A DNA stretch of 64,000 bases, from positions 92,995 through 156,994 of the forward strand of contig NZHD01000020.1 of assembly GCA_002691205.1 (NCBI GenBank), written 5' to 3'. This document shows, piece after piece, positions 1 to 12,762 of this stretch. The stretch's first letter is position 1, and each line of letters opens with the position of its first letter. The DNA comes from Deltaproteobacteria bacterium (lineage in GTDB: Bacteria > Myxococcota_A > UBA9160 > UBA4427). The position numbers were made by a program, and so were the translations under genes. The notes under the pieces were generated by a model, which was given only the letters and a program-made list of their open reading frames with translations, was not told the origin of the DNA and ran no database searches.

Positions 1-789
1 GTGAATCACAGGCAAGCCATCGAGATTCTCCACAGCGCTGTTCAATGTGGCGATTCGCATGAGGTCAGGAGCAATCATGACATTCACAACTTCATCTTCA
101 AGCTCACTCAAGATCTTATCTAGGAATTGGGATTCTTCACTCGATAGAGCCAGGATGACATAATCCACACGGTCTCTAGAGAGAATGGACTTGAGGTCGG
201 TGTACTGCCCAATCACATCCACAGAGCCAACCTTTCGCCCCGACAAGCCATTCGAAAGCGCACCCAGAATACGAAGCCCTGAGCCCAGTTGGCCTTGAAT
301 CCGCTCGATCACTTCCTCGGCCAGCCGACCTTCTCCTAAAACGAGCGCAAAGCGCTGATTGTACCCGCGACTACGCGCTGAACGAAGCACCTTCCGGAGT
401 ACAAACCGTGAGCTGACGAGAAGAAACGGAACCGTCGCTCCGAAAATAATTACGGCACCTCGAGAGTACGAGTAGCTTCGAATAAAGAAGGATAAAGCGA
501 GAAGGAGAACGATGGTCCCGAGAACTGTTCGACCAATATCCCAAGACTCCTCAACGAAAGTCCCCAACCTCTTTGCCTCATAGATCCGGTTACGTCTTGA
601 GAGCACGAACCAGAGAGGCAAGATCACACCCAGAGCCAGTGCATAGTCCTGAATTGGGGGCTGGCCCTTCGTGACCTCAAGTCCCGTCTCAAACCGAAGC
701 CAGTAGGCCAGCATCCAGGCAGCGGCCACCAAAACAAGATCCGCCCCCATAACGAGGCTGCGGAAAATTTCACTGTGGCGATACAGCAC
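1..789 (-). CDS. Undecaprenyl-phosphate glucose phosphotransferase (WcaJ-like), 5' part; runs off the window start
   Basis: Not in the ORF track; translated by hand. GTG at 789 after GAGGT gives MLYRHSEIFRSLVMGADLVLVAAAWMLAYWLRF, several TM helices, then RGYNQRFALVLGEG (CoA-binding-like domain). Confidence 0.8.
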   Translation of the reverse strand, partial: MLYRHSEIFRSLVMGADLVLVAAAWMLAYWLRFETGLEVTKGQPPIQDYALALGVILPLWFVLSRRNRIYEAKRLGTFVEESWDIGRTVLGTIVLLLALSFFIRSYSYSRGAVIIFGATVPFLLVSSRFVLRKVLRSARSRGYNQRFALVLGEGRLAEEVIERIQGQLGSGLRILGALSNGLSGRKVGSVDVIGQYTDLKSILSRDRVDYVILALSSEESQFLDKILSELEDEVVNVMIAPDLMRIATLNSAVENLDGLPVIH

Positions 790-904
790 CCATGGACCTC
801 ATTTAGAATTAAAACACTCTACAAGCGGGCGGCCTATCGCCCACCGCTTTAGGATAACGCTCCGAAGCTTCGAAATCTTCCTTTGGGAAATTTACCCGTT
901 TTCC

Positions 905-2140
905 TCAAATTCCCGCCTCCTCCGCATCCATCTCGATGGCATCGCGAAGCTCAGAAAGAAAGCTCGGCAAAGCCGAACTCACACGACTCCAGTTTGGAAT
1001 TTGCGGTGCACCCATGGGGTCTCGAACGAAGCTCAGACCTGCCGTCCGCAAGGCCCCCGAAAAAGTCTCCACTGCCACCTCTTCGGCGTGCCGATCAAAC
1101 TCGAGACCATTCAACTTCGCGTCGTTACTGAAGCTCGCAATCGCGTCCTGAGCAGTCCTAACGTATGAGGCGATCATTGTGTTCAAGAAGCCTGCCTCAA
1201 ACTCGACCCCATAACTGGCCAAATTCCGAATCAGGGAGGAGGCGATATCAACGACCATCCTATGAAGACCCGCGTTGGCGTCGTTTTCGGAAAGTTCACG
1301 ATGCTTATGTTCATAATTTTCGACGAGCTCAACCTGACAAACTCGCTTCAGCGCACTGTTGCGAAAGACCTCAGCCAACACGCCGATCTCTAGCCCCCAG
1401 TCCGCAGGGATCCGATTGGCTCGCACCAAATCTGTAGTCATTGAGCACTCTCCAGCAAGTGCGTAACGAAAAGACTCCAGGTATTCCAGAAGGGGGATGG
1501 GCCCCAACACCGCCTTCATCGAGCGAAGCAAAGGCATCATAAAAAGACGCGTCACACGACCGTGCAGCCGATCCGTGACTCGACTGTAATACCCCTTTGC
1601 AAACTCATAATTCATATTCGGATTAGCGGTGGGGTAACACAGCCGGGCCAGCAACTCTCGCTGATAGTTTCGAATATCGCAATCATGAATGGCGACCACA
1701 CGTGACTCTTGAGTCGCCAGCACGTAGCCATAGGCCACCCATGTCGCCAAGCCTTTTCCAGAAGGACCTGGATCCAAACCTTCCTCGCCTAACTGCCTCA
1801 TCAAGGCTTTGAGACGGGGGCCATCGTTCCAAATCACCACCGAGCCTTTGCCCTCAATACAGCGAACAGGCTCAAACAGGTCACGCATCTCTTTGAATTC
1901 ATTTAAGCCAGCGGTACCCGAAAGACTCACCACACATTGTCTCAGATAGGGAACCTGGGAAAGCTCATCTACGATTCCCTTGAGAGCTGGACCTCGCGCT
2001 TCCGAAAACAGGGAGGGCAGCACCAAGGCAATCGGCCTCTCCTCGGAGTAATCCAGGAGCTCTCTCTCTAAGCGCGGCAGATCGGGCTTTCCTAAGCGGT
2101 GCAAGGAAGTCACCACGCCGGTCTGATGAAAATCTGACAT
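905..2140 (-). CDS. gpgS: Glucosyl-3-phosphoglycerate synthase-like glycosyltransferase
   Basis: MSDFHQTGVVTSLHRL start, LVLPSLFSE, DxD motif (IHDCD), AKGYYSRV, YALAGE, DWGLEIGVL; start moved to the second Met. Confidence 0.75.
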   Translation of the reverse strand: MSDFHQTGVVTSLHRLGKPDLPRLERELLDYSEERPIALVLPSLFSEARGPALKGIVDELSQVPYLRQCVVSLSGTAGLNEFKEMRDLFEPVRCIEGKGSVVIWNDGPRLKALMRQLGEEGLDPGPSGKGLATWVAYGYVLATQESRVVAIHDCDIRNYQRELLARLCYPTANPNMNYEFAKGYYSRVTDRLHGRVTRLFMMPLLRSMKAVLGPIPLLEYLESFRYALAGECSMTTDLVRANRIPADWGLEIGVLAEVFRNSALKRVCQVELVENYEHKHRELSENDANAGLHRMVVDIASSLIRNLASYGVEFEAGFLNTMIASYVRTAQDAIASFSNDAKLNGLEFDRHAEEVAVETFSGALRTAGLSFVRDPMGAPQIPNWSRVSSALPSFLSELRDAIEMDAEEAGI

Positions 2141-2182
2141 GGTGCAAGCGTCGCACTCTCCTGCACCCGCTGTCAAGTTCAG

Positions 2183-2560
2183 CTAGTCGACTGCCAAAGC
2201 TTCATATTGAGACGTGATCCGCTCAAGCTTCGCCATGGACACCGAATCAGTCCGATCGAATTCAAACCCGATATCGGTCACCCAAGCATCGGTCTCAGTC
2301 GCCCACGCCACGCGCCCTGAGACGGTGAGCTGCTCTTGACCGATCTCAAACGTCACCGTCAAGACTTCGCCTAATTCGATTTCACACCCGGTCACCTGAA
2401 ACCGAATTCCACCGGCACTTACGTCACGTCCCTGGGCCAAGACCTGATCTCGGCCCGCGGGTGCAATGGTTAAAACCTGATCGGTGGGAATTCGCGGATA
2501 CTTCCGCCTTTCGGGTTCGGGCAAACCCATTAAACCTTGTTGAAACTGATTGTTTTTCAT
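2183..2560 (-). CDS. Single-domain PilZ protein (c-di-GMP receptor)
   Basis: RxxxR (RRKYPR) and DxSxxG (DVSAGG) motifs, followed by GRVAW...IGFEF. Confidence 0.85.
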   Translation of the reverse strand: MKNNQFQQGLMGLPEPERRKYPRIPTDQVLTIAPAGRDQVLAQGRDVSAGGIRFQVTGCEIELGEVLTVTFEIGQEQLTVSGRVAWATETDAWVTDIGFEFDRTDSVSMAKLERITSQYEALAVD

Positions 2561-2630
2561 GATCTCATGACATCGGCGTTAAAGGCCGCCAGCTTAAGGG
2601 GTGGGCGCTGAGGTCGAAGGAGTGAAGGTC

Positions 2631-3713
2631 TTACGCCTCAAACAAGTCAAGCTGAGCGTCTTTTTCCCCTGAAATCGCAACCAACCCGGCTGCCACCACC
2701 CCGAGCGAACGCACTTCCGTGACCAGACTCACTTCACACCGATCCAACAAAGACTGGACCGCTCGCTCAAGGTCAAAGCGACTCCCGATAGCGACCGTGA
2801 GAGTTTCGCTCCGAGTCAAACGTGTTTCATCCACGAGCCCCACACGCAGCGCCAAGCGACTTGTTTTCAAACCATGCCGAGCCAGACTTCCTTCAAGGGC
2901 CGTAGATAATCGGGCCAGACAGGCATCCAATGGGCTCCGATCTCGACTGGGGAGAGACAAAGTCTCCTTACGGCTAATCGTCTTCGGGAACCGCGTCGCA
3001 CGAATTACCGAACGATCCCGCCCAGCAGCCATTTCAAGAATAGCCAAACCGTGATTTCCCAACTCCTGCTCCACCACTTTCGTATCGAGTTGCAAAATTT
3101 GTCCCACCGTACGCGCGCCCATCTCTGCCAATCGACTCGCAGTCTTTACGCCAACCCGCGGCAAACGCGAAAGCGAGAGTGGCCCAAGAAAAGCCGCAAC
3201 ATCTGGAGCCTCAACCCATCCAATGCCCTGCTCGCCCGACTCCTCAGCTGCCAAACGTGCCAACATCTTTGAGGGAGCAATCCCGAGCTGAAGCGGAAGC
3301 CCCACCTCCGACCAAGTCAGCCGTACTACTTCTTCTGCCCAACTTGACACATCATGGGCTCGGACCGGGAGCGAACTATACACTTCGCCCAAACTCCCTA
3401 GTTCTAACTTTTGAAGATTTTCCCTCAGACAGCGCACGAGTACACTCGAAACTTCACGATAAAGATCCATACGAGTTGGGCGCACAATCGCATCGGGGCA
3501 AAGCTCAGCCGCCTCGAGCATCGTCATTCCTACGGAAACGCCGACATCTTGCGCTTGCCGGCTCGCCGATTGCACTTTCCCTTTTTTGCCTGGGTCACCT
3601 CCAACGAGGATAGGCTGGCCCACCAGTTTATCATCGGCGCGACGTTCCACCTCGGCATAGAAGTTAGAAACACCCGCAAAAACAATTCTCGCCCTCGACC
3701 CAACGGCTTTCAT
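2631..3713 (-). CDS. DinB/Y-family DNA polymerase homologue lacking catalytic acidic residues (probable pseudo-polymerase)
   Basis: FYAxVE, GIAPSKMLARLA, LPRVGVKTASRL, little-finger region and C-terminal QLDLF are present, but DMD is GVS and SLDE is SLGE. Confidence 0.85.
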   Translation of the reverse strand: MKAVGSRARIVFAGVSNFYAEVERRADDKLVGQPILVGGDPGKKGKVQSASRQAQDVGVSVGMTMLEAAELCPDAIVRPTRMDLYREVSSVLVRCLRENLQKLELGSLGEVYSSLPVRAHDVSSWAEEVVRLTWSEVGLPLQLGIAPSKMLARLAAEESGEQGIGWVEAPDVAAFLGPLSLSRLPRVGVKTASRLAEMGARTVGQILQLDTKVVEQELGNHGLAILEMAAGRDRSVIRATRFPKTISRKETLSLPSRDRSPLDACLARLSTALEGSLARHGLKTSRLALRVGLVDETRLTRSETLTVAIGSRFDLERAVQSLLDRCEVSLVTEVRSLGVVAAGLVAISGEKDAQLDLFEA

Positions 3714-6316
3714 CGAGTGGGCTCCAAGATGAGACGAGCGGTTGTCTCGTCCTCAACGAGCACTCGACTCATAAGCAGCAGGCCCGGCCGGCCCTTTGCC
3801 CAACCTTCCAACCCATCTCCGAAATGTGCACTCTCAGGGAATTCAGACTGACCAGGCGCCAAACTCGTCAGCATCCGGTCCGGAGCCGACAGGTCTACAG
3901 CCATCCGATAGAGGGTCGCTCTATCCGTTTGGAAATCTTCAGAGATTCCGAAAGCCGTTGAAGATAACGTGGCGTCCCCTCCGCCGACTCGGAGTTCAGG
4001 CAGTTGAAGAGAGCCAGAGGGGTCCGGCCCAAAGGCTTCAAACTCGAGACCATGCAGGCCTCCCCACTGCCAGTCTCGACGATCCGGCCCCAACCGTTGT
4101 GACAGCACAACCCATGTCTGTCTGAGCCCCTCATGCACGATTCGCGTGACGTGGTCTCGGTCGGTCCACCCTCCGGCTTCCATACGACGATCTGCAGCCA
4201 CCAAAACCCGCGCCACCAGCGACTGGGGGCGAACGCCGGGTAAAGCCAAATATCTTTCGAGGAGAACGTCTCCGAGAACAGGCCGAAACAGCCGATCGAA
4301 AATCGATTGGATGAGCACAGCGTAGGCTGCGGCTCCCTGACTTGAAGCCGAGAGCTCTCCATCCCAACGAGACAAAATAGACAGGATTTCCTTGGCCTCC
4401 GGACGAAGGGGAGCAACTTGATTTGCGATACTCGATATGGCAGGGACGACTTCGGTCGCCTCAACGTCGCGCACGTCCACTACTAATTCGGCTGCGCTCC
4501 GCAGATCAAGCCTTTCCGGAATTTGATTCGCTCCGGAGCCTTCAAATTCATTCGCCATCATTTCGATTAATATCCGCTCGAGACGTCGCTGGCGAACACC
4601 CGGCTGCCAAGACCATTCAATTTCTGCACGACTTAAACCTGCAGAAAGTCCGCCGTCGGCCACGGCGACCCAAGCACGCTCCGAACGGCCTTCCCCGAGT
4701 GCCTCGGTACCAAGACGAATGATTGGCAGATCCTCGTAAGGAATGGGCCCCCGCCAATCGTAAATTCTCATACGCCCAGGAACCGGCACCAACCGAGAAG
4801 GCAATGTTCTCCGGGGTAGCCAACCCGCCCATTGCATCCCGCCCTGCCCCTGATTGTCCGCGTAAACAACTGCAACCACCGGCTCGTGATGTGAACGCAA
4901 CGCAGCTACGAGTCCAGAGGCATCCCGTGCTTGGACAACTTCTAAAAACGAGGCGATCCCATTGCCCGGACGGGAACCCGTCCACGCCAAGGAGTGGGGT
5001 GGACGTTCCGTTAAGCCACGTGGCTTCAAGCCTTCGCGAGCCAAAGACAAAGAATCTGAAAATAAGCCATCGATAAGGGGACCGTGGCGAGTCGAGCGAA
5101 TACGAAACTCCTCCTCACCCAACCCTCCCGGCTTCAATATCCCAATCTTTTCCACTCGCTCTTCAAGATCCACCCAGCCCTGACCATCATGGTAGATCTC
5201 TCCCGATTGACGCAATGTCTCTTGATAGAGATCGGCCGTTACGGCCCCGGACGGAAGAGCGGCCCAAGCCAAATCCAAATTTCGCCCCGCCCAGAACACA
5301 GGGACACCCGGCACGGTCACACCGGCCACATTCAGAGAAGCCCCCTGAAGTTGAACCTGATAGAAGAGCGAAGGCACCGTCGGTGGCAGTTGATAATCTG
5401 CCACTAACGATGGAGCACCGCTCTCTGTATACATTCCGGCCAGAACCCAAGCCGTGCCGCCAAAAATCCGAGCTGCCTTTAAGAAGTCGGAAGACCCGAG
5501 CGAGGGCTCGCCTCGATTCAGCCCGTCCGGTACGTCTCGATACACCGGAGGCGAGCCTTCTGAATCCACGCCCGACGGGTCCCCTGCAATGCTCGCCGGT
5601 CTAAACAATCTCGCCCATCGACCTCCGAGGGATCGGATCAAATCATCCAGAACTAACTCTGTCTGAATCCCATTGCTCGTCTCCCACGCAATCAGCTTCG
5701 AAATCGCCAAACTATCTACAGGACCCCAGTCTTTCTCGACTTTTCCTGAGGCCCCGTTCAGTTCCTTGGCCACCCCACGATCCGTATCCCTCAGCCCCAA
5801 CCCCAAATTGACCCCGCGTGAGTAGGCCTCAAGGACTGACCGAGTCCTCTCATCCAACCGAGCCCATTCCTCCTGAGCGAGCTTCGCCAGTCCCAAAGTT
5901 CGGACCAATTGGTCGGTTCCAAGAGCCGATTCCCCGAGGACCTCCGAGATCGTCCCCTCCGCCAAGCGACGCAACCAAAGCATCTGAGATGGACGGTCAT
6001 AGGCGTGGGCGAGCCCTAAAGAGAGCCAGGCATCCATATCCTCTCGCGCTTCCACGTGCGGAACACCTCGGCCGTCCCACAAAATCTCGACCCTCGAGGA
6101 CAGGCCTCCTGTCACCTCTAGAGTAAGATCAAGCGGCGTCGAAGCACGCTTGACCCGCAGGTACTCTGCCCCCCAGCCCAAACCGAGCACAAGAACCACG
6201 AGTCCAAGAAGGATGGCCCCGATCCTCTGCGTACCGCCTCGCTCCGCAAAACCGCTCCAAATGCGACTCAGATTCAGGCCTTCGCTGCGTCCCACATTGA
6301 ACCCCACAATTGGCAA
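3710..6316 (-). CDS. Penicillin acylase family (S45, Ntn hydrolase) homologue with N-terminal TM anchor; nucleophile Ser absent
   Basis: DGRGVPHVEA, GLAHAYDR, PSLFYQ, GVTVPGVP, GRN..LAW, RSTRHGP, PGQSE motifs; GSNxW reads GGTAW. Start codon uncertain. Confidence 0.85.
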   Translation of the reverse strand: MPIVGFNVGRSEGLNLSRIWSGFAERGGTQRIGAILLGLVVLVLGLGWGAEYLRVKRASTPLDLTLEVTGGLSSRVEILWDGRGVPHVEAREDMDAWLSLGLAHAYDRPSQMLWLRRLAEGTISEVLGESALGTDQLVRTLGLAKLAQEEWARLDERTRSVLEAYSRGVNLGLGLRDTDRGVAKELNGASGKVEKDWGPVDSLAISKLIAWETSNGIQTELVLDDLIRSLGGRWARLFRPASIAGDPSGVDSEGSPPVYRDVPDGLNRGEPSLGSSDFLKAARIFGGTAWVLAGMYTESGAPSLVADYQLPPTVPSLFYQVQLQGASLNVAGVTVPGVPVFWAGRNLDLAWAALPSGAVTADLYQETLRQSGEIYHDGQGWVDLEERVEKIGILKPGGLGEEEFRIRSTRHGPLIDGLFSDSLSLAREGLKPRGLTERPPHSLAWTGSRPGNGIASFLEVVQARDASGLVAALRSHHEPVVAVVYADNQGQGGMQWAGWLPRRTLPSRLVPVPGRMRIYDWRGPIPYEDLPIIRLGTEALGEGRSERAWVAVADGGLSAGLSRAEIEWSWQPGVRQRRLERILIEMMANEFEGSGANQIPERLDLRSAAELVVDVRDVEATEVVPAISSIANQVAPLRPEAKEILSILSRWDGELSASSQGAAAYAVLIQSIFDRLFRPVLGDVLLERYLALPGVRPQSLVARVLVAADRRMEAGGWTDRDHVTRIVHEGLRQTWVVLSQRLGPDRRDWQWGGLHGLEFEAFGPDPSGSLQLPELRVGGGDATLSSTAFGISEDFQTDRATLYRMAVDLSAPDRMLTSLAPGQSEFPESAHFGDGLEGWAKGRPGLLLMSRVLVEDETTARLILEPTR

Positions 6317-6370
6317 GCCCCCAGTGTAGCGGGACCCGCCCGCTCAGACCCAAAATACGAAGCCGGAACA

Positions 6371-6399
6371 TTGTCGATTTCCGAAGCGACCGGTAGAAT
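6371..6399 (+). promoter_or_regulatory. Sigma70-type promoter for pgk operon
   Basis: TTGTCG (6371-6376), 17-nt spacer, TAGAAT (6394-6399), about 50 nt upstream of the pgk start. Confidence 0.55.
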
Positions 6400-6449
6400 G
6401 CCGCGCCGGCACAATCATGTGCCTTTTCCCCTAGAGAGGGTCACCCGAG

Positions 6450-7649
6450 TTGCACGTCACCAGCCTGGATGATTGGATTTCCCGAGCGAAGGACACCCCG
6501 CGTTCCCTGCGAGGTCGGAGGGTTTTTCTGCGAGCCGACCTGAACGTCCCTCTTGACGGCAATCGGGTCCGAGACGACACACGAATCAGAGCCTCCCTGG
6601 GCACGCTCACCCGACTCTTAAACGAAGGCGCCAGCGTGATTTTAGCGTCTCATCTCGGACGTCCTAAAGGGCAAGTCAATCCGAGCCTTTCCCTCGCACC
6701 CGTGGCAGTTCGTCTTTCCGAGCTTATTCCCAACCCAGTCCACTTCATAGCCGATTGCATTGGAAAAGAAGCCCAAACCGCAGCGGCCGCACTTAGCCCC
6801 GGAGAAGTTCTCGTCCTTGAAAATTTAAGGTTTCATCCAGGCGAAACCGAAAATGATCCCAAGTTTGCCGAAGAGTTGGCTCAGTTGGCCGAGGCCTATG
6901 TCAACGATGCATTTGGGACCGCTCATCGAGCCCATGCCTCAACGGTGGGGATCGTCCACCACCTGCCCGACGCAGTCGCCGGAGACCTCTTGCGTGCTGA
7001 ACTCTCTCACCTTGGAGTCGTCCTTGAGCCCCAGCGCCCTCTCCTATGCCTGCTGGGCGGAGCCAAGGTCTCAGATAAAATGGGCGTTCTTCGAGCCCTT
7101 TCAGAACGCGCAGATGTTCTCGCCATTGGAGGCGCAATGGCATACACCTTTCTCGCGGCCAAGGGACATAGCGTAGGCCAATCTCTGGTCGAAACGGATC
7201 GCATCGACGACAGCCTCAGCATCATGGAGGCCGCGAAAACCAACCAGTGCAAACTCCTCCTCCCCACCGATCACGTGATTGCACGTGGCCTAGAAGAAGA
7301 CAGTGAGACCCGGATCGAAAGTGAGATCCCAGAGGGCTGGATGGGGGTCGATATAGGTCCTATGACCGCGACCGCCTACGCCCATGAAGCCAAGCTCGCG
7401 CAAACCATCATGTGGAACGGACCCATGGGTGTCTTTGAGATCGTTTCTTTTGCCTCGGGTACACGTGAAGTTGCTCAAGCGGTGGCCGGCGCTTCGGCCA
7501 CTAGCGTGGTGGGGGGCGGAGATTCTCTCGCGGCCATCAATCAACTGGAGTTGGGCGATCAAATCAATCACTTATCCACAGGCGGAGGCGCGTCCCTCGA
7601 ATTTATTCAGGGCCTCACTCTTCCTGGCGTCGCAGCACTGGAGAAATGA
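6450..7649 (+). CDS. pgk: Phosphoglycerate kinase
   Basis: RADLNVP, SHLGRP, LLENLRF, NDAFGTAHRAH, GGAKVSDK, WNGPMG, GGGDS, STGGGASLE. Confidence 0.97.
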   Translation: MHVTSLDDWISRAKDTPRSLRGRRVFLRADLNVPLDGNRVRDDTRIRASLGTLTRLLNEGASVILASHLGRPKGQVNPSLSLAPVAVRLSELIPNPVHFIADCIGKEAQTAAAALSPGEVLVLENLRFHPGETENDPKFAEELAQLAEAYVNDAFGTAHRAHASTVGIVHHLPDAVAGDLLRAELSHLGVVLEPQRPLLCLLGGAKVSDKMGVLRALSERADVLAIGGAMAYTFLAAKGHSVGQSLVETDRIDDSLSIMEAAKTNQCKLLLPTDHVIARGLEEDSETRIESEIPEGWMGVDIGPMTATAYAHEAKLAQTIMWNGPMGVFEIVSFASGTREVAQAVAGASATSVVGGGDSLAAINQLELGDQINHLSTGGGASLEFIQGLTLPGVAALEK

Positions 7650-8428
7650 TGCGGACCTTAATTGTCGCGAATTGGAAAATGAATAAGAATCTCGCAGAAG
7701 CGAGTCAATTCATCCAAGACCTATTGGCGATTTGGAAAGCCGGAGGACCTGGAGCGCACTCCACTGAGGTCGTCATCGCACCGCCTTACACGGCGCTCTC
7801 CCCGACCGGAGAGGCCCTGACCGGGAGCCCCCTTCGGCTTGCCGCACAGGACGTGTCAGCCCACAAGGAAGGGGCTTTTACCGGTGAAGTCTCGGCCGGC
7901 ATGCTGGCGGACATCGGCTGTGAATACGGCTTGGTGGGGCACAGTGAAAGGCGCTCTGGGGCCTTTGAAAGCAACGCCATCGTGGCCCAAAAGGCCGAGC
8001 AACTGTGCCTGAACGGTCTCAAACCCATCGTATGCGTTGGAGAGACTCTTGGGGACCGGGAATCGGGAGACACTGCGGAGGTGGTCCTAGAAATGCTACG
8101 CTCCAGCCTGCCGCCCCCGGGAACTCCCGGTCGAGATAAATTGGTGGTAGCTTATGAGCCCGTGTGGGCCATCGGAACCGGGCTCACCGCTTCGCCGGAA
8201 CAAGCCCAGGCCGTGCATGCAATCATCCGGGACTGCCTTGAAGAGGAGATGGGTGAAGCCGGAAAAAGAACGCGAATTCTATATGGGGGGTCGGTAAACC
8301 CCCAAAATGTAAAATCAATCTTGAGCCAAAATGACATTCACGGTGTCCTCGTCGGGGGGGCGAGCTTGGATGCAATTGAGTTTGGCCGGATTTTCGGATA
8401 TTTAGACTCGGAGGACCTTCCATCATGA
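7646..8428 (+). CDS. tpiA: Triosephosphate isomerase
   Basis: ANWKMN, GAFTGEVS, GHSERR, AYEPVWAIGTG, YGGSV, LVGGASL. Confidence 0.97.
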   Translation: MMRTLIVANWKMNKNLAEASQFIQDLLAIWKAGGPGAHSTEVVIAPPYTALSPTGEALTGSPLRLAAQDVSAHKEGAFTGEVSAGMLADIGCEYGLVGHSERRSGAFESNAIVAQKAEQLCLNGLKPIVCVGETLGDRESGDTAEVVLEMLRSSLPPPGTPGRDKLVVAYEPVWAIGTGLTASPEQAQAVHAIIRDCLEEEMGEAGKRTRILYGGSVNPQNVKSILSQNDIHGVLVGGASLDAIEFGRIFGYLDSEDLPS

Positions 8429-8841
8429 TGACAGTGATTCTTGTACTGCACTTCATGGTCTGCTTTGTGCTGATCACAGTTGTGCTCCTTCAGCGAGGTA
8501 AAGGAGCCGACCTTGGGGCGGCCCTCGGCGGTGGCGGAGCCAACACTGTGTTCGGAAGCCGTGGCGCGGGCAACTTCCTGACCCGACTCACGACGGGCAG
8601 CGCTATTCTTTTCATGCTGACCAGCCTTTCACTCGCTTATATCGGCACCCACGAATCAGAAGTGGGTCTTTTTGACGAGAAAGCCCTCCAAGAGGAGCAA
8701 GCCGCGGAACAGGCTGGCAAAGCCGTTTTCGAGGAAGATGCTCAGAGCCTAGGCCTTGAGGACGTGGGCCTCGAAGAAGTAGGGGGACTTGAAGAAATCG
8801 ATCCTTCAGCCCAGAAGGAAGCGCAAACCCCCACCCCTTAA
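8425..8841 (+). CDS. secG: Preprotein translocase subunit SecG
   Basis: VLLQRGKGADLG...FGS...NFLTRLT with two TM segments; conserved tpiA-secG-tRNA-Leu order. Confidence 0.93.
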   Translation: MMTVILVLHFMVCFVLITVVLLQRGKGADLGAALGGGGANTVFGSRGAGNFLTRLTTGSAILFMLTSLSLAYIGTHESEVGLFDEKALQEEQAAEQAGKAVFEEDAQSLGLEDVGLEEVGGLEEIDPSAQKEAQTPTP

Positions 8842-8901
8842 AGGTGGAGTGGGCGAGACAAACGGAGTTGGGTATCCTCGGCCGACTTCAGAGATACGTG
8901 T

Positions 8902-8988
8902 GCGGCGGTGGCGGAACTGGTAGACGCGTCAGCTTGAGGGGCTGGTGGGGGCAACCCCGTGGAGGTTCGAGTCCTCTTCGCCGCACCA
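8902..8988 (+). tRNA. tRNA-Leu(GAG)
   Basis: GCGGCGG/TCGCCGC acceptor stem, TCAGC-TTGAGGG-GCTGG anticodon arm, long variable arm, GTTCGAGTC, encoded CCA. Confidence 0.95.
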
Positions 8989-9059
8989 TATCGAATAAAG
9001 CCGTGGGAATAAAAGAGATCCTTTTCTGAGAACCTCACCCCTGGGCTCAAAATACCGCT

Positions 9060-9084
9060 CCCCCAGTGATCACTGGGGGTTTTT
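9060..9084 (+). terminator. Intrinsic terminator between tRNA-Leu and convergent nadC
   Basis: CCCCCAGTGATCACTGGGGG followed by TTTTT. Confidence 0.75.
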
Positions 9085-9109
9085 CATGACTGAACAGCCC
9101 CATCCTGCG

Positions 9110-9985
9110 TCAGAGTGAGAGCGGAGAGTGGTCCAAGCCTAAATCTAAACAGGCGGCTGAGTGTGTGATCCAACCCACCGAAATTAAGTCGACCCCGGCA
9201 TCCGCCACTAAGCGAACCGTCTCAAGAGTGATGCCTCCCGAAGCCTCGAGCACGGCTCGGTTTTCATTTCGCTTTACCGCTTCTCGCAATGTTTCCGGCG
9301 ACATGTTGTCAAGCAAGATGATCTCTACACCCACTTCGAGCGCCTCATTCAACTGCTCGAGAGTGTCGACCTCAACTTCAATCCGAACCATATGACCCAC
9401 GTTGGCGCGAGCCGCCTCGACGGCCTGCCTCACCCCTCCGGCCATCGCGAGGTGGTTGTCTTTGATCAAAACTGCATCATCGAGTCCAAATCGATGATTT
9501 ACACCCCCTCCCATTCGAACGGCGTGCTTTTCGAACACTCGCATTCCCGGCGTCGTCTTGCGGGTGCAACAGATTTGCGCCGCCGTGCCTTCGACGGCTT
9601 GAACCAAACGGTGCGTCGCAGTGGCAATACCGGAGAGGTGCCCTAAAAAATTAAGCGCCGTTCTCTCTGCCGTGAGAATGGCACGCGCATTCCCATTTAG
9701 AATGAAAAGCGGATCGCCGGGAAGAACATCGCTTCCATCGCCCTTCTGAACCTCGATTTTGATCCCGCGATCAAGCTGCCTAAAAGAGGCCACCGCCAAG
9801 TCTACGCCGGCAATTCGGCCCGCTTCTCGCGCAGAAATTGTGCCGGAAAGCATAGCGTCCACGGGCACCACTGAGTTCGTCGTAATATCTCCCGCACGCC
9901 CGAGATCCTCGGCCAGCGCATGACGAACGGAATCTTCCACAGCCCCTACGGGCAAAGCACCCACCATTCTGGACGTATCACTCAT
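9110..9985 (-). CDS. nadC: Nicotinate-nucleotide diphosphorylase (carboxylating)
   Basis: LAEDLG, ERTALNFL, CTRKTTPG, HRFGLDDAVLIKDNH, EVEVDT, LLDNM, EASGGI; start moved to MSDTSR after GGAG. Confidence 0.95.
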   Translation of the reverse strand: MSDTSRMVGALPVGAVEDSVRHALAEDLGRAGDITTNSVVPVDAMLSGTISAREAGRIAGVDLAVASFRQLDRGIKIEVQKGDGSDVLPGDPLFILNGNARAILTAERTALNFLGHLSGIATATHRLVQAVEGTAAQICCTRKTTPGMRVFEKHAVRMGGGVNHRFGLDDAVLIKDNHLAMAGGVRQAVEAARANVGHMVRIEVEVDTLEQLNEALEVGVEIILLDNMSPETLREAVKRNENRAVLEASGGITLETVRLVADAGVDLISVGWITHSAACLDLGLDHSPLSL

Positions 9986-10014
9986 CGCTGCTCTCCACCT
10001 CAGAAAAAGATCTA

Positions 10015-11640
10015 TCACTTCAACGTAGCAAGAAATTGATTCGCCTCTTTGAGCGTGATCCAACTCCTTTTAGCCTGACCTAAATCCATCGAAGGAAAGT
10101 CAGCCCGGAAGTGACTCCCTCGACTTTCGCACCGAAGGTAAGCGGACGTTGCGATCAACCTCGCGGTTAATGCAGCGCTGGCAATCGAGCTGGAACGTCC
10201 ACTGGCCTCAGATTCAATTCGAGCGGTTTCTTTCACCGCGTGTTTCAGCCCGTCAGCTGTCCGGACCACTCCCACTGAATCCGACATGAGCGTACGCAGG
10301 GAATCGACGAGGACTGAGAGATCCGAATCCTGTCCGACTGCTCCATGGATTTTAGTTTTCGCCGGATCAATCTCGGGCACCGCGCCTACACTCGCCGCGA
10401 TAGAATCTGCGCAACGGGCGCTAAAGACAAGTCCCTCAAGCATGGAATTAGAAGCAAGTCGATTGGCTCCGTGCACACCGCCGGAGGCGGACTCGCCGCA
10501 CGCCCACAGGCCACTGACCGTGGTTCGCCCCTCTGCATCTGTGGCAATCCCGCCCATATGGTAATGCTCCGCAGGCGCAATTGGAATTCGCTCTGTCGCA
10601 GGATCAATCCCAACGCGTCGGCAAGACTCCGCAACCGTAGGGAAAGCCTCTTCAAAACGGCTGCCTATCGCCTCTCGACAATCAAGGAATGCCCCTTTTC
10701 CCCCTTGGAGTTGTTCATCGACACCGCGCGCGACCACATCACGAGGAGCCAGCTCTCCGGCGGGATGCAACTCGGACATAAAGCGGTCACCTGACTTCGT
10801 GACCAAAAGAGCGCCTTCGCCTCGAATGGACTCGGTTGCCAGAGGAGCGGGGGAAAGTCCAACATTCATCGCCGTCGGATGAAACTGCACAAACTCAAGA
10901 TCGGCCAGTTCAGCACCAACTCGAGCCGCCATGGCAATGCCCTCACCTATGGTCTCGGGGGGGTTTGTGGTCACTCGATAGAGACCTCCAATTCCCCCTG
11001 TGGCCAACAGCACCGCCTTAGCCAGAACTACGGTCTCGCCCGAAGGATTGCTCTTAGTGGCTTCACCGCGAACAAATGCACCTGACACGCGGTCACCGGA
11101 CATCACAAGCGCTTCAGCCGAAGCTTCCTCAATAATCCGAATTTTGTTTGAACTCCGAACCAGAGGAACGATCGTCTCCATAAACGCGCGACCTGTCCTG
11201 TCCCCCCCAACTCCAATCACACGATCGGCTTCATGTGCCGCCTCTCGATGAAGTCGAAACGAACCATCAGGATGACGATCAAATGGAACCCCCAGATCAA
11301 CCAGTTCCTGAATTCGCCCTGGCGCCTCGCGTGTCATCAATCCGACCACGTCCGGATCACAAATCCCTGCCCCTGCCGCCAAGGTGTCGTCAGCATGCTG
11401 GGTGACACTGTCATCCACCCCCAGAGCCGCCGCGAAGCCCGCTTGGGCCCAGGTGGTCGAAGACCCCACCGATAGGCTGGACTTAAGAATGAGCGTCACA
11501 GAAAGGGGGGCGAGACGTAGCGCGGTCATCAAACCAGCAATGCCGCCGCCTACGATCAACACATCACAACGAGCATGCACATAGGACGAAATCGTCACTG
11601 CGGTTTCTCTACCTGAAGAGGACACTACTCGATGAGTCAA
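10015..11640 (-). CDS. nadB: L-aspartate oxidase
   Basis: GGGIAG, WAQAG, EAAH, ATGGIG, QFHPT, LAPRD, AEHYHMGG, HGANRLASNS, ESRGSHFR. Confidence 0.95.
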   Translation of the reverse strand: MTHRVVSSSGRETAVTISSYVHARCDVLIVGGGIAGLMTALRLAPLSVTLILKSSLSVGSSTTWAQAGFAAALGVDDSVTQHADDTLAAGAGICDPDVVGLMTREAPGRIQELVDLGVPFDRHPDGSFRLHREAAHEADRVIGVGGDRTGRAFMETIVPLVRSSNKIRIIEEASAEALVMSGDRVSGAFVRGEATKSNPSGETVVLAKAVLLATGGIGGLYRVTTNPPETIGEGIAMAARVGAELADLEFVQFHPTAMNVGLSPAPLATESIRGEGALLVTKSGDRFMSELHPAGELAPRDVVARGVDEQLQGGKGAFLDCREAIGSRFEEAFPTVAESCRRVGIDPATERIPIAPAEHYHMGGIATDAEGRTTVSGLWACGESASGGVHGANRLASNSMLEGLVFSARCADSIAASVGAVPEIDPAKTKIHGAVGQDSDLSVLVDSLRTLMSDSVGVVRTADGLKHAVKETARIESEASGRSSSIASAALTARLIATSAYLRCESRGSHFRADFPSMDLGQAKRSWITLKEANQFLATLK

Positions 11641-11643
11641 TCA

Positions 11644-12762
11644 CTACGCGAAAGATCGCGCAACGCCTCCCACCAAAGCCACATCCTGACCCGTGCCGGT
11701 CAAGTTCCATGCCAAACGCCCCTCTGGAGGCGCTCCAATTTCCAACATCCGCTCCACTGATCGGCGTGCACGCACGGCCATCTCAGTGGGAACATTGACT
11801 TCGCCGTGACCGTAAACTAGAGAATCAAGAATCCGCGGCAACGTGATTCTTTTCATATGCGGGCAGAGATTACATGGGCGTACAAAATCAACGTCGGGTA
11901 ACTCAGCTGCCACGTTGTCGCTCATTGAACACTCGGTGAGCATGACCACGCGAGCCGGTCTCTTTTCTTGAACAAACTTGATCATGCCAGAAGTCGACCC
12001 TGCGAAGTCAGAGGCCTCCAGGACTTCAGGAGAGCACTCAGGATGAGCCAGCACCGTGAGATTCGGATCACTTGCTCGATAGGACTTAATCTCATCCGCG
12101 CTAAATCGCTCATGAACCTCACATCGGCCTCTCCAAGCCAAGATCTCAACATCTGTCTGCCGCGCCACATTCTGTGCCAAATATTCATCCGGCAAAAGAA
12201 GCACTCGATCTACACCGAGAGATTCAACCACGTGCAACGCATTCGAAGAGGTGCAGCAAACATCCGTTTCGGCCTTCACATCCGCAGGTGTGTTCACGTA
12301 ACTCACCACAGGCACGCCCGGGTATTCTGCCCGAAGCCGCCTGACGTCTGCGCCGGTCATTGACTCCGCCAGAGAACACCCGGCTCGCTGGTCCGGAATA
12401 AGCACCACTTTCTCAGGGTTAAGAATTTTGGCCGTCTCGGCCATAAAATGAACACCCGCGAGAACGATCACATCGGCATCGGTCTCAGCCGCTTCTTTCG
12501 CAAGGGCCAGGGAATCGCCGACGATGTCCGCGACGCCATGAAAGATTTCAGGTGTCATGTAATTATGCGCAAGAATGACGGCGTTTTTCTCACGCTTAAC
12601 TTCGTTGATGGCTTTCACGTAGGGCGCAAAGACAGGCCACTCCACCTCAGGAATGACCTGAGAGAGTCTTTCGTAAATCGGACGGACCGCCTTTTCGACC
12701 TCAGGCGTGTAATCAAGATTCGGCAGCTTCTCACCCTGATCTGAAACCTGAAAATTTGGCAT
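11644..12762 (-). CDS. nadA: Quinolinate synthase
   Basis: LAHNY, GDSL, GVHFMAE, GCSLA, YVNT, CCTSSNA, AHPEC, CPHMK; likely start MPNFQ at 12762 after AAGGGG. Confidence 0.95.

Follow-up and report, generated by a model that had tools for sequence, protein, structure and literature searches.

Why would a bacterial class hold on to a DNA polymerase homolog that has lost catalytic residues, keep it throughout its history between an acylase homolog and a putative receptor for cyclic diguanosine monophosphate (c-di-GMP), and let it evolve as slowly as a glycolytic enzyme? This question is raised by five genes at the start of a 64,000-nucleotide stretch of DNA (the window) from a Deltaproteobacteria bacterium of the Myxococcota (GenBank assembly GCA_002691205.1, here G000; contig NZHD01000020.1, positions 92,995 to 156,994). 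All five lie on the minus strand, as do the features described within them, and encode in order an acylase-like protein, a DinB-like protein that we call DinB', a PilZ domain protein, a GpgS-like glycosyltransferase and the 5' part of a WcaJ-like transferase. We read this row together with the genes that diverge from it on the plus strand, beginning with pgk. A first-pass annotation had taken the row for a possible operon in which two adjacent enzymes were inactivated and repurposed as a non-catalytic sensor or scaffold module. Its gene map holds: the ATGA in which the acylase stop and the DinB' start overlap (3710-3713) can be read directly, and the remaining genes are separated by 70 nt (DinB' to PilZ), 42 nt (PilZ to the GpgS-like gene, counted to an ATG at 2140) and 115 nt (GpgS-like to WcaJ-like).

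Sequence comparison firmly supports the assignment of DinB' (2631-3713; 360 residues with IMS, IMS_C and helix-hairpin-helix (HhH) domains) to a new Y-family subfamily whose members are non-catalytic and conserve a clamp motif, and which is predicted to be inactive throughout the class. DNA polymerase IV models score the protein at 130-168 bits, under all NCBIfam cut-offs (256-399). When it is aligned with E. coli DinB, motif I of the latter, HVDMDCFFAAVE, stands opposite FAGVSNFYAEVE in DinB' (3645-3680; family consensus VPxFYAEVER), placing G14 at the position of D8 and S16 at that of D10. Motif III reads SLGEVY (3378-3395) opposite SLDEAY, with G109 in place of D103 and E104 kept as E110, and the canonical SYEAR, which provides the dNTP-contacting Tyr and Arg and is present in the DinB of G000 itself, reads SRQAQ. 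The earlier statement that both upstream enzymes lack their catalytic residues therefore stands for the acylase, described below, and for the D8, D103, Tyr and Arg positions of DinB', but E104 is retained in the window.

To see how general these substitutions are, we tabulated residue columns over 85 distinct DinB' sequences, and did the same for 67 distinct acylase orthologs and 80 PilZ orthologs. The D8 position is variable (Glu in 54, Gln, Asp and Thr in 5 each, Val in 4, and others), the D10 position is Pro in 84 of 85, and the D103 position is again variable (Gly 41, Ala 16, Glu 12, Asp 11). At the E104 position Ala (67), Gly (10) and Ser (7) are found, the window protein being the sole sequence with Glu. 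The Tyr and Arg positions vary as well, and the KP(N/D)G block is replaced by EEAGxxG. Motif I is nevertheless the best-conserved block of the protein, remodeled rather than decayed. Equally constant is a C-terminal pentapeptide, QLDLF in the window (residues 354-358; 2640-2654), that matches the beta-clamp-binding consensus: across the 85 sequences QLxLF has Q in 85, the first L in 83, the second L in 85 and F in 85. An AlphaFold2 model of DinB' (predicted local distance difference test score, pLDDT, 92.3; predicted template modeling score, pTM, 0.85) keeps the four-domain fold with its last residues as a flexible tail; QLDLF sits in this low-pLDDT tail, two residues before the end of the window protein and 0-12 residues before the end of its orthologs. 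Foldseek searches with the model returned only Y-family structures among the top 50, led by DinB, Dpo4 and MsDpo4 with E-values down to 7e-35.

DinB' proteins form a single clade, set off from the sampled canonical DinBs by one long branch (support 95/100), while the ImuB of G000 stands apart on a very long branch. In a profile search of 1.84 billion representative proteins, the VPxFYAEVE signature occurs in only about 30 clusters, which, save a few fragments, all rank above every canonical DinB. All but one of 41 sampled relatives carry an ortholog, as do 135 of 151 genomes of the class, and the absences that we checked are contig breaks; in G004, G027, G033 and G041, for example, the contig breaks at or beside the DinB' gene, with acylase and gpgS at contig ends. 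On another contig (L123, G000:C101:7000-15128; positions 1098-4859) G000 also encodes a canonical DinB (442 residues) with DMD, SYEAR, SLDEAF, QLSLF and a C-terminal tail and, convergent to it, imuA (RecA-like, 273 residues) and imuB (529 residues). The same dinB/imuB pairing is seen in relatives. Since a canonical DinB is present in the same genome, DinB' is an extra, third Y-family paralog and not a degraded sole copy.

Several leads concerning DinB' were set aside. An apparent PilZ+IMS fusion (public protein P0047, 521 residues), considered as a Rosetta-stone protein, reads through a frameshift from DinB' into pilZ; it is joined by a low-complexity linker of frameshift junk and has lost the little finger, marking it as an assembly or frameshift artifact. 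What looked like in-frame stops in the DinB' of one genus proved to be its natural stop codon, past which the alignment had run. P0271, the closest relative that is active, has unrelated neighbors (LarA, FAD oxidase); we thus found no active counterpart of the cluster. Separately, an unrelated-looking Y-family representative (P0322, 471 residues) reads HIVLDDFYPSVE, SAQAA and GLDRFF while keeping QLSLF, and may be another, independently inactivated DinB.

We next consider the setting in which DinB' has been kept. The first-pass annotation had named a synteny search in relatives beforehand; we found the one-strand order acylase, dinB', pilZ, gpgS in 19 of 19 relatives from 12 families and in 80 further loci from public metagenome-assembled genomes (MAGs), all of uncultured Myxococcota from marine, sediment or soil samples. 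The order also persists in a second order of the class, giving about 100 loci in all, and lost synteny was not seen. The 80 further loci were recovered by an alignment-based scan; a single-protein query gave none. The acylase stop and DinB' start overlap by 4 nt in 40 of 66 distinct loci and by 1 nt in 5, and every spacing is below 50 nt; median spacers are 91 nt for dinB'-pilZ and 64 nt for pilZ-gpgS. Contigs from two marine metatranscriptome runs cross the pilZ-gpgS junction (2099-2336 and 2101-2251; depth 2-6), and fragments match DinB' and wcaJ. Ratios of nonsynonymous to synonymous substitution (dN/dS), estimated by the Nei-Gojobori method on unsaturated pairs with genes compared within the same genome pairs, are 0.07-0.30 for DinB', 0.14-0.29 for the acylase, 0.04-0.38 for PilZ and 0.02-0.16 for the GpgS-like gene, against 0.10-0.27 for the control PGK and 0.10-0.36 for TIM. 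All four core genes are under purifying selection. The earlier suggestion that both pseudoenzymes are intact and selected is thus borne out (0.07-0.30 for DinB' and 0.13-0.29 for the acylase over all comparisons), with neither gene near 1 and both resembling PGK and TIM. DinB' is, in this respect, a clean natural example of pseudoenzyme retention.

The acylase supplies a second event that can be dated relative to the first. Its gene (3710-6316; 868 residues) encodes a penicillin-amidase homolog of the N-terminal nucleophile (Ntn) hydrolases, with full-length PF01804 homology over residues 76-844 (E = 6.9e-134). A hydrophobic segment at residues 32-50 (6167-6223; mean Kyte-Doolittle 2.24) could be a signal anchor or a signal peptide, and a single N-terminal hydrophobic segment near residue 20 is present in 67 of 67 orthologs, with ambiguous flanking charge. 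Taking the orientation from characterized family members, the acylase domain is most likely extracytoplasmic. In an alignment to the D-succinylase 7eby, GSNNW stands opposite GGTAW, so that Gly287 (5456-5458) occupies the position of the nucleophile Ser-beta1 (GSN to GGT), and NDPH stands opposite ADYQ, with Gln309 (5390-5392) at the His-beta23 position (DPH to DYQ). Because both residues are absent, the acylase of the window's family should be unable to process itself or to hydrolyze a substrate. The nucleophile Ser is kept, however, in 48 of 67 orthologs, as G-S-(S/A/T) together with D-x-H, which argues that the ancestral cluster held a probable enzyme. The remaining 19, essentially the window's family, have Gly, Ala or Val at the Ser position and no conserved Ser or Thr at the next; D-x-H is retained wherever Ser is and has decayed in the Ser-less clade. 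Within that clade dN/dS is 0.13-0.26 for the four least saturated pairs. This comparison makes a solid case that the acylase is a predicted pseudoenzyme in the window's family only, through a later, family-specific conversion. The idea of adjacent inactivation as one event does not survive, as DinB' is inactive class-wide and the acylase only here.

The third gene (2183-2560) encodes a stand-alone PilZ domain protein of 125 residues (PF07238, 54.8 bits against a cut-off of 22.5; E = 1.2e-14), with a likely alternative start at Met11 (2530). It carries RRKYPR (R19-K-Y-P-R23; 2492-2509) and DVSAGG (D46-V-S-A-G-G51; 2408-2425), and RRKYxR and SxGG are at least 90% conserved among the PilZ orthologs; from these motifs we infer a c-di-GMP receptor. 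In one locus (L048, 7855-8211) PilZ is inverted relative to dinB'. Another (L092, 6998-9457) is the sole locus without PilZ between dinB' and gpgS; its clamp motif is QPELF, followed by a longer tail, and its acylase lacks the His, a single case.

The GpgS-like open reading frame runs from 2176 to 905 (423 residues), but in relatives and public gene calls the protein begins with MSDFHQ (2140); the start is most likely this ATG and the product a GT-A glycosyltransferase of 411 residues (905-2140). It aligns over its full length with the GpgS_Meth model NF040724 (E = 9.6e-101) at 337 bits against a cut-off of 700, and has a DXD-type motif, DCD, at 1676-1684. This is the slowest-evolving gene of the row, 66-81% identical across the order, and within the phylum it occurs in 38 of 38 sampled members of the class compared with 1 of about 163 other genomes. 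The row had been credited with two sugar-phosphate transferases, which does not fit this gene, a glycosyltransferase acting on a phosphorylated acceptor. The protein is 48% identical to one from a Myxococcota genome outside the class (L119, G232:C3:567000-586000). There, at 6159-12064, a GGDEF gene (6159-7112) and an unlabeled gene (7209-8207) are followed by a GpgP-like phosphatase of the HAD/S6PP type (8204-9043), gpgS (9036-10268) and a convergent gene of the GH13 alpha-amylase family. By its gene content this locus is a classical glucosylglycerate-type operon headed by a diguanylate cyclase, which provides an independent hint of c-di-GMP control.

What follows gpgS is variable. The WcaJ-like gene of the window, a predicted polyprenyl-phosphate hexose-1-phosphate transferase, is cut by the window start (1-789, first 263 codons); this N-terminal part matches WcaJ/EPS sugar-transferase models, and the full gene on the contig (L031:12393-13784) encodes 463 residues with CoA_binding_3 (PF13727) and Bac_transf (PF02397) domains (E = 2.6e-65). 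It follows gpgS directly in the window's family, while elsewhere gpgS is followed by kdsA, a PMT_2/GT-C gene and wcaJ, by kdsA alone, or by a convergent lon. WcaJ, listed at first as a member of the cluster, is therefore better described as a variable neighbor. For instance, kdsA (KDO-8-phosphate synthase) and a PMT_2/ArnT-like GT-C gene lie between gpgS and wcaJ in L017, L019, L021, L025, L032 and many of L040-L111, and in families other than the window's kdsA often overlaps the gpgS stop by 4 nt. Since kdsA and the GT-C gene lie downstream in other families, the cluster borders envelope-glycan genes.

How do these parts fit together? The reading that we favor, to which we would give an even chance, is that acylase, dinB', pilZ and gpgS form a vertically inherited, co-regulated, operon-like cluster whose products belong to one lifestyle or stress programme and are not joined in a single scaffold complex. 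The core, back-to-back with a lower-glycolysis operon, would mark this uncultured class of Myxococcota. DinB' would dock on the beta sliding clamp, and probably on DNA as well, where it would be an occupant or adaptor without enzymatic activity that modulates clamp traffic while performing no DNA synthesis; we propose such docking for DinB' itself only. PilZ would be a single-domain c-di-GMP adaptor with the GpgS-like enzyme as its likeliest client and DinB' as a possible second one. The GpgS-like enzyme would make glucosyl-3-phosphoglycerate or a related glycoside from 3-phosphoglycerate. The acylase would be an extracytoplasmic Ntn-hydrolase, active in most of the class and reduced in the window's family to binding a ligand, translationally coupled to DinB' yet dispensable for the rest of the cluster. 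Gene neighborhood makes the suggested link to compatible-solute or glycan synthesis plausible, and if the link between PilZ and GpgS is true, compatible-solute or glycoconjugate synthesis joins the known outputs of c-di-GMP.

Several observations weigh against this reading. It is from motifs that we predict binding to the clamp, binding of c-di-GMP and the activity of GpgS. The dinB'-pilZ and pilZ-gpgS spacers could hold promoters of their own, and the metatranscriptomes gave few, low-depth contigs, none of them across the acylase-dinB' or dinB'-pilZ junctions. In mirror-tree residuals PilZ shows no rate covariation with any neighbor. A search for a GpgP of the HAD-IIB type, the only type looked for, with the L119 GpgP-like protein as query (E <= 1e-5), found none in G000 and 20 relatives. 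Because this phosphatase is absent from the 21 genomes and sister families have kdsA and a GT-C gene next to gpgS, the product of the GpgS-like enzyme may end up in a glycoconjugate instead of serving as a free solute. Finally, the housekeeping operon next to the cluster holds its position just as well, and some of the synteny may therefore be a matter of inheritance only.

This last point leads to the chief alternative, which we consider improbable but well short of negligible: that the neighborhood was inherited without shared function. Acylase-dinB', pilZ-gpgS and the envelope-glycan genes would then make up two or three independent units next to gap-pgk-tpiA-secG, in a region where rearrangements are rare, with DinB' confined to DNA metabolism, like a solo ImuB, and PilZ acting only on the transferase or elsewhere. 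The divergent glycolysis genes are indeed as constant as the cluster: (gap-)pgk-tpiA-secG is found in nearly all loci, with gap present in other families, and it is this equally conserved housekeeping neighbor that keeps the alternative alive. The row also accommodates insertions of 1-4 kb, which separate dinB' from pilZ (L086, L117) and, in the second order, pilZ from gpgS; the region 3' of gpgS is fluid, and the lack of covariation of PilZ with its neighbors fits as well. Yet order and strand persist where DinB' identity has fallen to 30-47% and synonymous divergence is saturated, distances at which unrelated neighbors are usually shuffled. Gene content does change on the far sides of secG and gpgS, and DinB' and the GpgS-like protein share a class-restricted distribution, both of which argue for more than a quiet stretch of chromosome.

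The scaffold put forward by the first-pass annotation, in which a membrane-anchored, inactivated acylase that binds an acyl ligand, an inactivated polymerase that binds the clamp or DNA, and PilZ as the c-di-GMP reader assemble into one non-catalytic sensor complex steering polysaccharide or compatible-solute synthesis, we regard as doubtful. It draws on the conserved overlap of the acylase gene and dinB', on the shared strand and selection of the genes, and on rate covariation, which is highest of all pairs for acylase and DinB' (r = 0.46-0.57). We take this covariation as suggestive only, as housekeeping controls range over r = 0.12-0.48. Against a scaffold, 48 of 67 acylase orthologs keep Ser and His, and WcaJ is no constant member. 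The acylase is also gone from L064, L077, L105 and L112, and only its last 67 codons are left in G025 (L025); in these loci dinB', pilZ and gpgS are intact and QLDLF is present, except that in L112 the contig ends inside dinB'. Its N-terminal tail is not conserved among orthologs, and a physical complex with DinB' and PilZ is unlikely because the acylase domain is most likely outside the cytoplasm. Being ancestrally catalytic, dispensable and probably in another compartment, the acylase leads us to favor the co-regulated programme over a scaffold.

In a bolder version of the PilZ link, PilZ with bound c-di-GMP would bind DinB' and gate its docking on the clamp, so that the second messenger directly throttles traffic at the replication fork or in translesion synthesis; the same operon would meanwhile turn on GpgS-dependent glycoside and envelope remodeling. 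We see this as an outside chance. If true, it would connect c-di-GMP signaling directly to the sliding clamp for the first time and give a dead polymerase a new role beyond the DnaE2 mutasome.

It is, in our view, very unlikely that DinB' is not dead but carries out nucleotidyl transfer or another activity through alternative residues, such as the Glu that 54 of 85 sequences have in place of D8. The fully intact fold and the remodeling of motif I, with its Pro at the D10 position in 84 of 85, are what one might expect of such a protein. However, the D103, Tyr and Arg positions vary, 67 of 85 sequences have Ala in place of E104, the conserved KP(N/D)G block has gone, and the window protein has Gly at both Asp positions (D8 and D103). 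Recent decay, in which acylase and DinB' are young pseudogenes still open by chance, has nothing beyond the missing catalytic residues in its favor and can be dismissed, because DinB' is inactive class-wide, no in-frame stops occur, and the dN/dS of both genes (0.07-0.30 for DinB') equals that of the glycolytic enzymes PGK and TIM in the same genomes.

Returning to the favored cluster, we looked for regulatory signals around it. The divergent pgk-tpiA-secG operon occupies 6450-8841 on the plus strand (Pfam PGK, TIM and SecG). Upstream k-mer footprinting found a motif, G[CG]AATGTACC, in the divergent acylase/gap-pgk intergenic region of about 18 of 67 loci. The window copy, ACAATGTTCC at about 6365-6385, overlaps the -35 element of a promoter-like site on the pgk side (plus strand, 6371-6399), and for this reason the motif is probably not a regulator of the acylase. 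Inspection by eye for a LexA box upstream of the acylase, canonical dinB and imuA gave no shared motif, and a promoter and terminator scan gave counts at the shuffled expectation, with none convincing. An Rfam search over positions 1-9000 of the window found no riboswitch or other RNA except one tRNA gene, at 8902-8985 on the plus strand directly after secG (RF00005, 46.5 bits). PADLOC gave no defense-system match.

Comparison with known systems helps to place each member of the cluster. In agreement with the first-pass annotation, the literature that we searched describes no system with this arrangement, and it contains no link between PilZ or c-di-GMP and either glucosylglycerate synthesis or Y-family proteins; a Bdellovibrio paper on PilZ and DnaN is no precedent, as PilZ serves there only as a cytoplasmic label. 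The acylase resembles penicillin G acylase, PvdQ and the acyl-homoserine lactone and cephalosporin acylases (PF01804) in its full length and its N-terminal export-type segment, and sister-family orthologs keep the G-S-x and D-x-H of these Ntn-hydrolases. Unlike them, the window's family lacks Ser-beta1 and His-beta23 and is nonetheless under purifying selection. That this one family lost its nucleophile is the later event, after the class-wide inactivation of DinB'. The GpgS-like protein shares with the GpgS-GpgP pathway of the Methanococcoides and Persephonella type a full-length NF040724 match and the DXD motif, but it scores at half the equivalog cut-off and no HAD-type GpgP accompanies it in the 21 genomes. 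For PilZ, single-domain adaptors such as that of the MapZ-CheR1 pair reportedly bind a partner enzyme in a c-di-GMP-dependent manner, and BcsA and Alg44 belong to PilZ-gated glycosyltransferase systems; like these, the present gene encodes a small PilZ domain with RxxxR and D/NxSxxG next to a glycosyltransferase.

For DinB' itself, one comparison is with DNA polymerase IV (DinB), with which it shares length, four domains, HhH and little-finger motifs, the C-terminal QLxLF and 26-36% identity, and from which it differs by the loss of the catalytic Asp/Asp/Glu and the dNTP-binding Tyr and Arg. ImuB is likewise a Y-family fold without catalytic carboxylates that has a beta-clamp-binding motif, and is presumed to be a non-enzymatic clamp-docking hub (PMC10421592, PMC6511836). 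DinB' shares the missing carboxylates and the retained clamp motif; unlike ImuB it is of DinB size (about 350-365 residues), has neither an ImuB-C domain nor a RecA-NT motif, and is flanked in about 100 loci by acylase and PilZ genes, not by imuA or dnaE2. Further inactive PolY groups have been described, namely the scDinB2-like, gbDinB2-like and Kyrpidia types (Timinskas & Venclovas 2019; NAR 2026; PMC6511836, PMC12926913), and the surveyed ImuB and inactive PolY groups are all tied to dnaE2 and/or ImuB-C and carry the RecA-NT motif (PMC6511836, PMC12926913). Like DinB', the inactive PolY groups are DinB-like in sequence and nearer to the PolY core than ImuB. Judged by their descriptions, DinB' is set apart from them in ending right after the clamp motif and in its fixed place between acylase and PilZ. 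Inactive Y-family polymerases have so far been understood as parts of mutasomes with DnaE2 and ImuA or with RecA, and DinB' has no mutasome context.

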